Assembly (NCBI GenBank): GCA_000934665.2
Contig: JYFJ02001009.1
Location: 62,001 to 96,235, forward strand
Direction of reading: 5' to 3'
Source: Catajapyx aquilonaris
Taxonomy: Eukaryota
Length of the DNA: 34,235 bases
Shown: in pieces, positions 17,601 to 25,825 of the stretch
Numbering within the stretch: position 1 is the first letter of the stretch
How the letters are laid out: each line of letters opens with the position of its first letter
Translations under genes and position numbers: made by a program
The notes under the pieces: generated by a model
Told to the model about the DNA's origin: nothing
What the model saw: only the letters and a program-made list of their open reading frames with translations
Database searches by the model: none

Positions 17601-20600
17601 AGGATGAGAACTGTTTATACAGATTTCTTTGGGAGACTCCAGCCGCCTGCCCGTTAGCTCTGGATCCGGACAATCCGTACGTTAGTGGCGACTGTACTAT
17701 CACTGACACTCGTACCAACCACAAGTGAGTCGCATTAATTAGTCGATACCCTGCTCAGCATTATGATTTTCTCTGTCTTGTCAGATTTAACATGAGCTCG
17801 TTAAGGAATGAGAACGGAGTGACCATCACTGGCGCTGTGAATCTTTACGCCTTTACGGTCAGTGTGTGTGGTCCGTTGAAAGGCAGCCCATGCGGAGATG
17901 TTGGTAAGGATTTTTCGATGTCATCGTTTACATTGTGATTAAAATGTTCTGTTCAACAGGTTCATGCCAACTGAATAAGTCAAGTGGAGCTTATTCCTCC
18001 GGCGGGAAAGCTAATTCCCGTCTCCGTTTCGAGGACGGAATCCTCTCGCTGCGATACGAGGAAGGCGAGGCTTGCCCAGGATTTCCGGCCGTCAACCACA
18101 GCACCTTAATCCAGTTTATCTGCTCCAGGGAAGGGTCACCATGGCAAGGACCTCGGCTGGTCAGCGATGCAGATGCATGTACGCACATGATTCATTGGGA
18201 CACGCCCTTGGCTTGCGAAGTGGACGTACAGTCCCAGTGCATGGCTAGTCGGAAAGGGAAGCAGGTTGATCTTTCTCCGTTGGTTAGGGAGGTTGGGAAC
18301 TATGAGGCTTCAGGGAAGGACACATCGTACCTGATTAATGTTTGTCATGAGGTCAGTCCGGACGAGAAGGTGGCTTGTCCGGCTGGAGCCGCAGTCTGTA
18401 GTTTCAAGGCCCGCGATGGAGGATATTCGGACGTTATGGTGAGTGGAATTTACGACTGGCCGACACGGTTTTACATCGTATCTCTATTGTAGTCTTTAGG
18501 GTACGTATCCAGCAAACCAACGCTTAACGAAGACGGCTCGGTGACAATCAAGTACGCAGGTGGAAGCGATTGCTCAACTAGCAAGGACGTCAAGGCCAGT
18601 TCGACTGTAAATTTTGTATGCAGTGAGCTACACTACCCTGTAAGTAATTAATCTATCGTTAGTGATTGCGGATCCAGTTTATTTTTAATTTAATGCATTT
18701 CAGGGATCGCCTACGTTATCAGGAGTTGGGGATAATTGCGATCACACTTTTGAGTGGAAGACACGCGTCGTGTGCCCACTTCAGGAACTGCGGCAAGCGG
18801 GACCTGGACGGTGTGTGTATCATGGCGAAGGTTTCCAGGTTGATCTGTCGGCGTTGCATCAACCAGGAGGACATGAGGTCAGTATGCGTTGACCGATGGC
18901 GACTGATGTAAAGCTGATGATAATTCATATTTAAAAAAATTTCAAGGTGAAAAGTGCGGAGAGAAACTTCCGGCTGAACTTGTGCCAAAGTGATGCCCAA
19001 TGCGGCGGAGCATGCGAAAAGACTTCGAAGGGAGTAAAGTCGTACGGGAGGAGAGTACAGTCTGACTTCTACGGGAACACAATGTCAATCGCCTACGAAG
19101 GAGGTGACGTCTGCAGCAAGAAAGAGAACTACGGTGCCAAACTTCTGATCAAGTGTAACGCAACGGCAGGGAAAGGATCGCCCTCTCTTTTACTGGTAAG
19201 TCCGCTTCACTTTTTGCATGCAAACGATGGGTTTAAAAAAATTAAAAATCAGCTGGTTTGGGGCTGCCCATTTTTAAAAACTTGCAGATTTTTATTAACC
19301 GGGATTGGCTTTTTAAAAAATCAGGTAAATGCACTGGTAACACGTTGGGCACGTCACACGTAACAGTGGGGGGAAAAATGCGCAACACTTTTATAATTGT
19401 CCGAGTTTCGTTCGAAGGCAATGTAAACAGTAATATCGTCATTAGCAAAAATAGACTGAGGTCAAAACCTGCGATTGGTTCGAGATAACAGATAATTTTC
19501 GCAACAAATATCATCCACAGCATGTCGGTCATCTTAAAATACTTCACTGGATTTTTTTAAAAATTGAGCTGTACATTAATAATTAATTGTTTGAAAAATT
19601 GGTACAGTAATGACTAAACAAGTATGACTTCAAATTCGCTCACTTGTTCACCACGTTTTTTGTGTTCGCTTGGGTTCAGTACTGCATTTTTCATGCTGTT
19701 GAAGTCGAGGTCCTCGGAGACCTATTGTTCAAAATCTCGGCCCGAATAAGCTCGAGCTTGTCGTCCTTTCTGCGACCGAATGCTCCTGGCGTAGGAGGAT
19801 GCGGCATGGCGTACCTAAGCTTCTGCCAGAACCACGGGTCGTCCCACTTTAAGTAGGTGTTCATCGACACGTACGCCCTCAGTTCCTCGTCCAACTCGTC
19901 GGACGATGGAACTTCACCGTACACTATGATTATGACACGCCTCGTCTTGTCCTGAAGTGCTTGCAAATGTGCTGCCTTAAACTCCATTCGACCCCAAACA
20001 CTCTCCAGAAAGTTCTTTGATAGGACGACAATAGTGCGGCGTGACGATTCGACCGAGTTTACTATTTGATTCGGGATGAATTCGCCCGCGAGCCAGTCGC
20101 GGTAGTGGACACAGAGTTTGAACTTGGGCTGTTCGGTTTCAAGTTTCGAGACCAGTTCTGCGATGACGAATTCCTCATCCTTATGCGAGTAACTGACGAA
20201 CGCATCGTAACTCTTATCGCGATCCAACTCGCGTTCGGTCACGCACCAGAGGCACAGGTTGCGGCTGTAGAGCCACACCTGCACTAAATGTTTGTTGCGA
20301 TAGTACGCAACCGACAGGGCGGTCACCACTAATGCGATTGCAGTAAGCGTCACAGATGCAGCCACTATCATTTTAGTTTGTCCGGGGCACAACTCGTCTA
20401 TCGTCAGCGTCGACACTTGCCGCCCATTGCGATCACACTGGACTGCATTGCCGTCTACTACGCTTCGATAGCTATCCTGCAGGAATTTCTGGAGCGGAAC
20501 AGCTTCGCAGTCACAGATCCACGGATTGTTGCTTAGTGACACATGAAAATTGGTGATATTTCCCATCCGCTGCACTAGATCGGCTGGCAATATGGTCAGA

Positions 20601-23600: not shown

Positions 23601-25825
23601 AAGGGGACTGCGGAAATAACCGAGGCTGCTATAACCGAGAGTTGCTTAAAGCCGAGACTCTACATCCTCATTTCCTATGCTATACTTGCGGCATTATCAT
23701 TACTAATACAGTCTTCATTTTGAATTGATAGTATAGAGTGAAGGTTATCCGCAGGTACTGTACGGCACTTTCTAGCTGCAGCATTGGCAGGTGCATCACC
23801 TGCTACCACACTCACCCACACATCCTCCATGGTGTACCCTCTGTACTGTAATTGAGAGAGAGAGAGAGCCCCTCCCAATGAAACCAACTCTCCAACAAAC
23901 CACGCGCAACTCTCTTTTTCTGAGAATCCAACACGACGTCACCCACCAACACGAGTCTAGTGGGTGGTTGGGGGGGTGAAGTTGGGCGTCCCCCAGGCAA
24001 AGGCTTTGACCACTGGTAGAGGAGGAGGAGCTCAGGAGGATCAAGGGCCCCCTTTCCCTTTTTATTTCCCCGGACACAGTGTTGCCCTGCTGTTGTAAAA
24101 GCACACAATATGTATGGCCTTGTTTTGTCCTAGGACATATTGTTTATTAATAAGCAACAGGTCGTTCAACCTGCACCTGTTTTAACACCTGTAATCATAT
24201 TTCCCCCCCATCAACAAACATCATGAAAGTACAGTAAATGTAAAAGTTGTTGAGCTCTTTTTACAAAAATATGTGGGTCATACTTTTCACTTGGTTTCAA
24301 TTGAAGATGGAAAGGTTTTCGTGGAAAGTTGTACGCAGTTGGATTTTTTAACGACCTTGAGAACATTTTTGCACGCTATAACCAACATATGTGATGTAAT
24401 TGCAATTTTTTTTTGCAGTCAGGGAAATATGTATAGATGCGCTTTAGTGCACTCTGAGAGTTATCATTTTTACAGATTTCTACAGGTGAATTCGTCAACC
24501 TTGAAGTGTGCAAAAAAAATGTGCGAATTTATTCCTGATATGACAGTGCACAGTATCATTTTTACAGATTTTTTTTTATAGGTAAATCGTCAACCTTGAA
24601 GTGTGCAAAAAAAATTTGCGAATTGTTTATCCCTGATATGACATTTTAGTGCACTGTACGAGTATCATCTGTAAAGGTAAATCGCCAACCTTGAAGTGTG
24701 CAAAAAATGGCGAATTGGTTTTTTTTGCTGATATGACATTTTAGCCAGTCCTTGACCTTTGCGGATGTAATATTTTGTGTACCCAGAATCATTTGAATTT
24801 TGCAATGAATGGAATGGCTTGTTTTTTTCTGCACAAATTTTGCGAATGGATGAAAAGACCTGTTGATGATTCATGCCACGTGTTTGGATTATCAAATTTA
24901 ATTGGAAGATTTTTTAAAACAAACTTGATCTGGCAGGGGAAAAGCCAGATGGGAAAATACGCAGTAATGTTGCTATCAATTACATTTTTTTTTTCTGCAG
25001 CTGACAAGTGTCTGTAATAAGCCGACGTACTGTACTTTCAAATGATCCAGGATGTTTACATATGACACCGGTTTGCTTATTATTTCGCAGGAGCGCTTGC
25101 GATTGAAATTGTCTAGGATGTTGCAATCATCTGTACGACACACAGAATAATAATTGCAACAAGTTTCAAGAAGGGAGATGTTCATACACACCATAAAATT
25201 CCTGTGAAAGTATTGGCATATGTCCAAGTTGTTCGCTGGAATCGACGGCAAATACCTTTTTACATAATACTAGTAGCGCTACTCAATTCAATGAGCTGTT
25301 GCTAAGTCATGCTACGTACATTACTAATTATTTACAGATTAAGCCGTTGTCGTCGACTGCAATTACCGTAACCAAGAGCTGTAACCGATTGTAACACGCT
25401 TTATTCCAGATGTACCCATGCTACGTAGTGTTCCAGTGGGAAACGGATGTCGTATGCGACATATCGACTCCAGGTGCTGCCCCCCATACGTCAGAGGCTT
25501 CCAGTCCGATCGCAGGAGCTTTGGCGGCTGTCATAATATCCGTCGGTTTAGTCGGAATGGTTATGCTGGTCTTGTGGAATCCTGATAGACGGAGGAGGAT
25601 CAACATGTGGGCAAAGAATCTGCTTGGACTCGGAAGCCGTGACACAGTCCACTACAGCAAGGTACGGTTTCCTCTCGCATGTGTCCTTCAAAAGTGATGT
25701 AACATTTCACACTTTTGCAGATTAATACGGATGACCCTGACAGTGAAGCTGCTTTGCTGTTGGGAACCAGCGAATCGCAACCGCCTCTGATTCAAGTAGA
25801 TAGCGACGATGAACTTTTAACTTAA
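14625..25825 (+). CDS. IGF2R: Cation-independent mannose-6-phosphate receptor / LERP-family type I membrane protein, ~1269 aa, 8 MRH repeats; exons 14625-14734, 14794-14993, 15068-15183, 15587-16176, 16277-16601, 16662-17308, 17366-17516, 17579-17724, 17785-17903, 17960-18438, 18493-18639, 18704-18877, 18947-19195, 25410-25661, 25721-25825
   Basis: Signal peptide MRLFVVLWAVVGACHA; repeated C..(Y/F)DL..L...IN(V/I)C...I.F.C...W.T..AC units; transmembrane IAGALAAVIISVGLVGMVMLVLW; cytosolic YSKI sorting motif and terminal DSDDELLT (DxxLL). All 14 introns GT-AG and in phase. Confidence 0.93.
15266..15490. mobile_element. MITE-like element in receptor intron 3
   Basis: Terminal inverted match TTACATGTGAGC (15273-15284) / GCTCACATGTAA (15468-15479) and internal repeated GCTCAGCGATG. 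Accounts for this intron being ~400 bp while neighbours are ~60-100 bp. Confidence 0.55.
19691..22794 (-). CDS. Toll: Toll receptor, multiple-cysteine-cluster (Toll-1-like) type, ~1010 aa; exons complement(21436-22794, 19691-21364)
   Basis: Signal peptide MAALTVFIVLLAVVSSYA, Cys cap, many LxxLxLxxN repeats, LRRCT NPLYCNC, second LRRNT CPENCTC, LRRCT NPWICDC, transmembrane helix, TIR domain (YDAFVSYSHKD, LCVHYRDWLAG, SRRTIVVLSKNFLESVWGRMEF, MNTYLKWDDPWFWQKLRYAMPH). A 71-bp GT-AG intron joins the two ORFs; an acceptor at 22850-22851 implies an upstream non-coding exon. Confidence 0.96.
24465..24745. repeat. Three diverged tandem copies of a ~95-bp unit
   Basis: AGGT.AAT(T)CG.CAACCTTGAAGTGTGCAAAAAA..GCGAATT..CTGATATGACA recurs at ~24484, ~24580 and ~24675. 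Confidence 0.88.

Follow-up and report, generated by a model that had tools for sequence, protein, structure and literature searches.

What should be made of a Toll receptor gene that lies antisense inside a lysosomal sorting receptor gene of Catajapyx aquilonaris: is it a pair of independent neighbours, a regulatory device, a recent insertion, or an error of assembly? A sequence-only reading of the window (the whole stretch of 34,235 nucleotides analysed here, positions 62,001 to 96,235 of contig JYFJ02001009.1) had described a host gene with introns of mostly ~60-100 bp but with a 6.2-kb intron 13, which splits MRH repeat 8 and holds, on the opposite strand, an intact Toll of ~1010 aa with a single 71-bp coding intron; this was explained as the insertion of an intron-poor Toll copy. 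We consider it very probable that two independent genes form a conventional nested pair here, within a compact arthropod genome, and that the Toll was brought in by a move or a duplication at the DNA level. The arrangement is real yet ordinary, being one more opposite-strand nested pair of a known type.

The host gene is located on the + strand, where the exon model assigns it a coding span (14610..25825) of 15 coding exons that join without any internal stop into a CI-MPR/LERP-like protein of 1274 aa. Its layout comprises eight MRH/CIMR repeats in tandem, all mutually alignable, followed by a TM segment and a cytosolic tail with an acidic dileucine-type terminus. The Pfam family CIMR (PF00878) exceeded its cut-off in four of 14 exon translations (99.8, 60.8, 106.5, and 70.4 bits) and stayed below it in six short ones. 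Furthermore, all five matches of the homologue search (5/5) carry CIMR, the three named ones being entitled 'cation-independent mannose-6-phosphate receptor'; host residues 3-1191 align end to end with residues 7-1230 of one homologue (P0123), and among solved structures PDB 6um1 was matched at 2.8e-87. Hydropathy windows of the TM segment start at residues 1186-1196, giving a type I membrane topology with a short cytosolic tail, and the end of this tail, an acidic run followed by LL, forms what we take to be an acidic-cluster dileucine sorting motif. Judged from its sequence, the host is a CI-MPR/LERP-type lysosomal sorting receptor and type I membrane protein. It shares the tandem MRH/CIMR repeats, type I topology, and short acidic-dileucine tail with CI-MPR and Drosophila LERP, the latter as portrayed in the excerpted part of the LERP report (PMC4610224), whereas its eight repeats and 1274 aa differ from the 2499 residues of the bovine 6um1 chain and from the 1721 and 1334 aa of the spider and amphipod homologues, respectively.

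Numbered by coding exons, so that any 5'UTR intron would change the count, host introns 1-14 measure 59, 74, 403, 100, 60, 57, 62, 60, 56, 54, 64, 69, 6214, and 59 bp. Twelve of the 14 fall within 54-100 bp, and intron 13 has ~100 times the median length of 61 bp, which bears out the contrast in length described earlier. Introns 1-5 and 14 were placed by reading frames and splice consensus only, while introns 6-13 are identical to joints in a contig from run X5. Intron 13 itself (19196..25409, + strand), delimited by reading frames, splice sites, and the X5 contig, is a phase 0 intron of the form GTAAGT...CCAG, with the donor CTG|GTAAGT (intron start 19196) and the acceptor TTCCAG|ATG (intron end 25409). 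It interrupts MRH repeat 8 at a position 7 residues downstream of an alignment column common to introns 3, 7, and 11. The N-terminal and middle part of the repeat, ending ...GSPSLLL, is encoded by exon 13 (18947..19195, + strand), which is bounded on both sides by X5 joints, 18875>18945 (cut +2) and 19194>25409 (cut +1). The end of the repeat (MYPCYVVFQWETDVVC) lies together with the TM segment in exon 14 (25410..25661, + strand; exon model, hydropathy, and HMM). Joined across the intron, repeat 8 (...GSPSLLL|MYPCYVVFQWETDVVC) reached 42.2 bits against an HMM of repeats 1-7, compared with 11.0 bits for the best of 200 shuffles, and the claim that intron 13 splits this repeat is thereby upheld. 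Exon 15 (25721..26378, + strand; exon model and X5) contributes the final 34 codons, the stop codon at 25823-25825, and a 3'UTR up to the X5 contig end at 26378, where the corresponding contig piece spans 25719-26378 and an AATAAA is found at 26341. That exons 14-15 constitute a separate gene was rejected, and both were assigned to the host, because the X5 joint connects them to exon 13, repeat 8 is completed, and the homologue alignment continues through residue 1191.

Much of the evidence on transcripts comes from X5, a run from another sample and study whose kind is not on record as RNA; we infer its RNA origin from the intron-less contigs. These contigs carry no strand information, and strand was deduced from GT..AG orientation and reading frames. 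The host contig (record 17, 2767 nt) contains eight GT..AG joints equal to model introns 6-13, none of which is present in the DNA runs X1 and X2. Among them, the joint 19194>25409 (with the cut shifted by +1, 19195>25410) skips 6214 bp with GT..AG borders at a depth of 31. This is the junction that had been proposed as a check on the nesting, and with an RNA nature of X5 that is itself inferred, it indicates that host mRNA is spliced across the Toll, contrary to the failure of such splicing that the sequence-only reading had considered.

On the - strand, the Toll CDS starts with an ATG at 22794, codes down to 19694, and terminates with a stop at 19693-19691, yielding 1010 aa from two exons. 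Coding exon 1 (21436..22794; ORF, LRR_8, and X5 record 20) provides 453 codons with the signal peptide and N-terminal LRR block, and coding exon 2 (19691..21364; ORF, Pfam, and X5) provides 557 codons plus the stop, comprising further LRRs, an LRRCT-LRRNT cluster, an LRRCT, the TM segment, and the TIR domain. Between them lies a single coding intron of 71 bp (21365..21435), a phase 0 GT..AG intron placed by splice consensus; length, intron, and intactness thus match the earlier description of the Toll. Three X5 contigs map to 19260-20897, 20872-21362, and 21476-22204, of which records 18 and 19 cover exon 2 and record 20 covers 21476-22204 in exon 1. The match of record 19 ends at 21362, with 65 further letters elsewhere, and this break is consistent with splicing of the 71-bp intron; its joint is absent among the joints listed. 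The 3'UTR (19260..19690), defined by the X5 contig end at 19260 and an AATAAA, contains a single such hexamer on the minus strand (19296-19291), 31-36 nt before the contig end, a distance similar to that of the host (26341 vs 26378). The contig end at 19260 is 65 nt from the end of host exon 13 at 19195. Since the Toll was found with an intact frame, a complete architecture, and contig cover, we rejected its interpretation as a pseudogene.

Taken from its 3' end to its ATG (19260-22794), the Toll is enclosed by intron 13 (19196-25409), in agreement with the coordinates and frames of the complete antisense coding gene claimed before. A long pyrimidine run plus CAG upstream of the ATG (AG at 22851-22850, 55 nt from the ATG) resembles a strong acceptor site and suggests a putative 5'UTR intron, so that the first Toll exon could be elsewhere, conceivably beyond intron 13. 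The intron region upstream of the Toll (22795..25409, - strand; from sequence) has 39% G+C and includes a 95-bp tandem repeat at 24462-24707. In the remainder of intron 13, none of the 12 non-Toll ORFs of at least 80 aa (12/12) belonged to a Pfam family, and the window yielded zero Rfam matches at gathering score and zero tRNAs. Stretches of intron 13 that lack X5 cover (bins 22941-23834 and 24729-25175) were excluded from the evidence.

The nested gene appears to encode a receptor of typical architecture. Its C-terminal TIR domain matched PF01582 with 72.4 bits (cut-off 21.3) and PF13676 with 60.4 bits, and what we take to be TIR boxes 1, 2, and 3 are located at residues 839, 875, and 965. 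The LRR ectodomain was recognised by LRR_8 in both exons (exon 1, 187.6 bits; exon 2, 35.7 bits), and a loose pattern counted 18 LRR-like starts. Cysteine clusters occur in more than one place: inside the ectodomain, where an LRRCT precedes an LRRNT, and next to the membrane, where there is a second LRRCT (motifs at residues 542, 605, and 733). No Pfam LRRNT or LRRCT match was obtained in the Toll at E<=0.01, and of its 20 ectodomain cysteines, 17 are aligned with cysteines in the D. melanogaster protein P0106. Hydropathy windows above 1.8 start only at residues 1-4 and 783-789, as for a signal peptide and a single TM segment. At E<=0.001 a homologue search returned 333 proteins, and the 120 best were inspected: the named ones among these 120 are insect 'protein toll', 'toll like receptor', or TIR proteins, and the matches of single-Toll length among them show 37-44% identity. 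Ten of ten full-length Tolls chosen from the same 120 could be aligned with the joined protein of 1010 aa over almost the whole length, for example residues 6-994 with residues 5-1002 of P0016 (1045 aa). The best solved structures were 7b1b ('Toll-like receptor') and 4lxr ('Protein toll'). By homology the nested gene is a full-length Toll-1-type receptor, where the Toll-1 label derives from match names and the best PDB structures. Drosophila Toll (Toll-1) and insect 'protein toll' share with it an LRR ectodomain with the internal LRRCT-LRRNT cluster and the membrane-proximal LRRCT, one TM segment, and TIR boxes 1-3, and it is collinear with them over about 970-990 residues, although full-length identity is only 33-41%.

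We therefore propose the following arrangement of the conventional nested pair. The Toll, read from the opposite strand of host intron 13, would be a transcription unit of its own, and the host mRNA is formed by joining exon 13 to exon 14 over the whole Toll gene. Some 65 nt separate the Toll 3' end from host exon 13, so that within the extent of the contigs the two mature mRNAs have no overlap. Likely, intron 13 is long because it houses the Toll together with its 2.6-kb upstream region, and the Toll may have been moved or duplicated at the DNA level so as to land within or beside an intron that was already there. The two genes are assumed to function independently, with any interference being incidental. 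For annotation, this provides a clean locus with transcript-type support, in which a 6.2-kb intron among introns of ~60 bp is explained by its resident gene; gene finders should neither split the CI-MPR-like gene at exon 13 nor fuse it with the Toll.

How and when the Toll entered the intron allows for a different account, namely that a young Toll duplicate, either DNA- or RNA-mediated, was recently placed into a formerly short intron. Such an origin is possible, if on the unlikely side. It would conform to Drosophila nested genes, which typically originate as short young duplicates inserted into long introns, according to the excerpted text of Assis 2016 (PMC5174743), and it draws on the fact that all host introns other than intron 13, bar one, are at most 100 bp and on the position of intron 13 near the column common to introns 3, 7, and 11. 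Against it, no hallmark of how or when the Toll came in, as by the insertion that the sequence-only reading proposed, was detected at this locus: direct repeats bracketing the Toll, as expected of target sites, were looked for and none were found, and the ORF Pfam search detected no transposon-type domain in the remainder of the intron. Furthermore, the Toll retains 2.6 kb of upstream sequence and a spliceosomal intron, and is thus not a simple processed retrocopy; it is full-length with a typical architecture, and the differences in X5 are all synonymous (3/3). Its 33-41% identity to Tolls of other arthropods is uninformative on a close paralogue. Likewise, a metagenome scan with Toll exon 2 recovered 41 loci, of which 0/41 matched the host protein (the best one, of 5991 nt, has 46% identity on one segment and is without CI-MPR-like sequence), and this is uninformative on synteny either way.

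A second account builds on the antisense interference raised by the sequence-only reading and attributes a function to the orientation: Toll induction, e.g. upon infection, would lower host output, either by head-on polymerases or by Toll transcription continuing beyond its poly(A) site as far as host exon 13, and the arrangement would have been retained for that reason. The opposite orientation and the mere ~65 nt between the Toll 3' end and host exon 13 speak in its favour, as do indications in the excerpted text of Assis 2016 (PMC5174743) that members of Drosophila nested pairs interfere with each other's transcription and diverge in expression, from which some interference between Toll and host upon Toll induction would be a reasonable expectation by analogy. 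However, the same text treats interference as a cost removed by selection and not as a regulatory device (PMC5174743), the mature mRNAs are non-complementary as far as the contigs extend, and contigs of both genes occur in X5, so in that sample, at least, expression of one does not strictly exclude expression of the other; contig depths were not applied for ranking host against Toll. We thus regard functional coupling as improbable. That the nesting is old, conserved, and kept because head-on transcription or read-through cuts sorting-receptor production on Toll activation seems to us highly improbable; if true, immune or developmental Toll expression would be tied to endolysosomal traffic. 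The locus would gain in importance only if the nesting proves conserved or the two genes inversely regulated.

Finally, a misassembly that placed the Toll between host exons 13 and 14, of which the earlier reading had itself warned, is barely credible: the contigs are of short-read type only and X1-X4 are possibly the source reads of the assembly, so that the colinearity of X1 and X2 is not independent of that assembly, but single-run DNA contigs of 20,931 nt each (X1 record 1 and X2 record 9) cover 14001-26761 with one and four differing letters and zero gaps, the Toll gene borders show no loose ends or joints among those listed, and the only DNA joints listed within 19196-25409 are ones with 20-21-letter sides.

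The conventional nested pair that we favour has ample precedent. In D. melanogaster, nesting involves nearly 10% of genes, and 71.3% of the nested ones lie on the strand opposite to their host, as given in the excerpted texts of two surveys (PMC3814207, PMC5174743). Our literature search found no paper describing a Toll nested in an intron of a mannose-6-phosphate receptor. In comparison with the Drosophila and metazoan nested genes portrayed in the excerpts of these surveys (Lee & Chang 2013, PMC3814207; Assis 2016, PMC5174743), the Catajapyx Toll is similar in that its CDS and 3' end reside within the longest intron of the host, and further in that it is opposite-strand and intron-poor, shows no exon overlap in the contigs, and is spliced across by its host. 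It differs in being a long (1010 aa), conserved signalling receptor, whereas the nested genes of Drosophila, in those same excerpts, are typically short, young, and testis-biased.

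The complete coding sequence of a Toll gene lies on the minus strand inside intron 13 of a plus-strand gene for a lysosomal sorting receptor resembling CI-MPR, and the observation made in the sequence-only reading is confirmed in every particular. The host frame, 14610-25825, runs through 15 coding exons and 1274 codons without interruption, with introns of, in order, 59, 74, 403, 100, 60, 57, 62, 60, 56, 54, 64, 69, 6214 and 59 bp. That reading had singled out intron 13 as a 6.2-kb exception among short introns; indeed, 12 of the 14 measure 54-100 bp, and intron 13 (19196-25409; donor CTG/GTAAGT, acceptor TTCCAG/ATG) is about 100 times the median length. 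The only other long one, intron 3 (403 bp), is accounted for by a short dispersed repeat, possibly MITE-like, at 15268-15416, where many unrelated contigs of the DNA runs X1 and X2 join or end. Introns 3 (15184-15586), 7 (17517-17578), 11 (18640-18703) and 13 are all in phase 0. The first three share one alignment column of MRH repeats 1, 5 and 7, and intron 13 falls seven residues downstream of that column, in repeat 8, an offset which could reflect intron sliding, imprecise alignment or a separate origin.

The nested gene reads from an ATG at 22794 to 21436 (453 codons), is interrupted by a single coding intron (21435-21365, 71 bp, GT..AG), and continues over 21364-19694 (557 codons) to a stop at 19693-19691, giving the intact product of 1010 aa that had been proposed. 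Exon 1 encodes many LRRs (LRR_8, 187.6 bits), and exon 2 adds further LRRs together with a TIR domain (72.4 bits). A search with the protein returned 333 proteins at E<=0.001; among the best 120 of these, every named entry is an insect "protein toll", "toll like receptor" or TIR protein, matches of single-Toll length show 37-44% identity, and all ten full-length Tolls picked from them match the joined protein over almost its entire length (33-41% identity). Among solved structures, 7b1b ("Toll-like receptor") and 4lxr ("Protein toll") match best. The N-terminus and residues 783-789 are the only places with hydrophobic windows, LRRCT-like motifs at 542 and 733 flank an LRRNT-like motif at 605, TIR box motifs lie at 839, 875 and 965, and of the 20 ectodomain cysteines 17 are aligned to cysteines of the D. 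melanogaster protein P0106. The product is a full receptor of the Toll-1-like type with multiple cysteine clusters, the clade label being taken only from the names of its matches. Upstream, at 22849-22905, a long pyrimidine run with CAG, 55 nt 5' of the ATG, resembles a 5'UTR acceptor, and an in-frame ATG at 22896 would, if transcribed, add 34 residues before the signal peptide.

Splicing of the host across Toll is seen in run X5, apparently of transcript type, whose sample and study differ from those of X1-X4; no run is recorded as RNA. One X5 contig of 2767 nt skips eight GT..AG stretches that, once joints are shifted to the splice boundaries, equal model introns 6-13 exactly, and none of these joints occurs in the DNA runs X1 or X2. 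Its joint 19195>25410 skips 6214 nt, namely intron 13, so that the host transcript does cross the Toll gene by splicing, as had been predicted. The same contig reaches 26378, 37 nt past AATAAA at 26341. Further X5 contigs lie on Toll itself (19260-20897, 20872-21362 and 21476-22204). The second ends at most 2 nt from the predicted Toll acceptor, with 65 more letters placed elsewhere, which fits removal of the 71-bp intron, the joint being absent among those listed (six more exist). From the Toll stop to host exon 13 the minus strand has a single AATAAA (19296-19291). It stands shortly ahead of the point where the contig ends (19260), which places the Toll 3' end about 65 nt from that exon. Within the reach of the contigs, the mature Toll and host mRNAs do not overlap.

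Misassembly, the other outcome that would have spoken against the nesting, is not indicated on present evidence: contigs of 20,931 nt from single runs X1 and X2 are gapless over 14001-26761, although these runs are possibly the source of the assembly, so that their colinearity tests the assembly method and not the sample. Allelic differences from the window in Toll exon 1 lie at 21651, 21676, 21697 and 21824; X5 shows three, all synonymous and common to X2, and the fourth, confined to X2, replaces Leu324 with Ser.

When 14 host exon translations were submitted to Pfam, CIMR (PF00878) matched four above the cut-off and six short ones below it, and four had no match. All five database relatives found with one host exon carry CIMR, the three named ones (spider, amphipod, mite) being "cation-independent mannose-6-phosphate receptor", and one exon matched the solved receptor 6um1 at 2.8e-87. 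LERP is described as the fly orthologue of CI-MPR (PMC4610224). Residues 3-1191 of the joined protein align with 7-1230 of a 1334-aa amphipod homologue, and the protein consists of eight mutually alignable repeats, followed by a single hydrophobic stretch, whose windows start at 1186-1196, and by a short tail that closes with an acidic run and two leucines. Exons 13 and 14 taken singly gave no Pfam match; joined, they score 42.2 bits as repeat 8 against an HMM of repeats 1-7 (200 shuffles, at most 11.0 bits), in an alignment that crosses their junction, and intron 13 therefore divides MRH repeat 8, as claimed.

The same exons bear on the origin of the nesting. Since exon 14 supplies the end of repeat 8 and also the transmembrane segment to which the amphipod homologue aligns as well, the host did not grow around Toll; Toll would have entered, or settled beside, an intron in a receptor gene that was complete by then. 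Its proposed origin by insertion of an intron-poor copy is unproven. Toll carries its own intron, no direct repeats bracketing it were found, none of the 12 other open frames of at least 80 aa in intron 13 has a Pfam family, the window holds no Rfam families or tRNAs, and one metagenome scan yielded no syntenic relative. The Toll upstream region (2.6 kb) has 39% G+C versus 50-52% in the Toll exons. A 95-bp tandem repeat (about 2-2.3 copies) lies there at 24462-24707.

The surroundings are gene-dense eukaryotic DNA, arthropod by best protein matches. Pfam identifies a DEAD-box helicase (6092-7638, minus), a ubiquitin-conjugating enzyme (9165-9563, plus), an RCC1-repeat protein (12075-14007, plus), a WD40 protein with a CAF1C_H4-bd domain (27801-28840, minus) and a THAP-domain protein (31633-31905, plus). 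Spacing is tight, with about 600 bp from the last RCC1-like ORF to the host start codon. Tandem repeats of 25 and 68 bp closely follow the host 3' end (26700-26925), and between the WD40 and THAP genes a 53-bp unit is repeated in tandem 28.9 times (29047-30544, 88% matches), its copies traversed by open frames and its edges bearing related 41-42-bp and 94-bp variants.

Interference of Toll transcription with the host gene, as the sequence-only reading suggested, is plausible by analogy with known nested genes. In D. melanogaster, nearly 10% of genes are reported in nested structures, and nested pairs are described as showing signs of transcriptional interference, an effect which selection tends to remove (PMC3814207, PMC5174743). 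Our literature search found no paper combining Toll, nested, intron and mannose-6-phosphate receptor; the Toll-in-receptor arrangement is a case of a common, well-described class.
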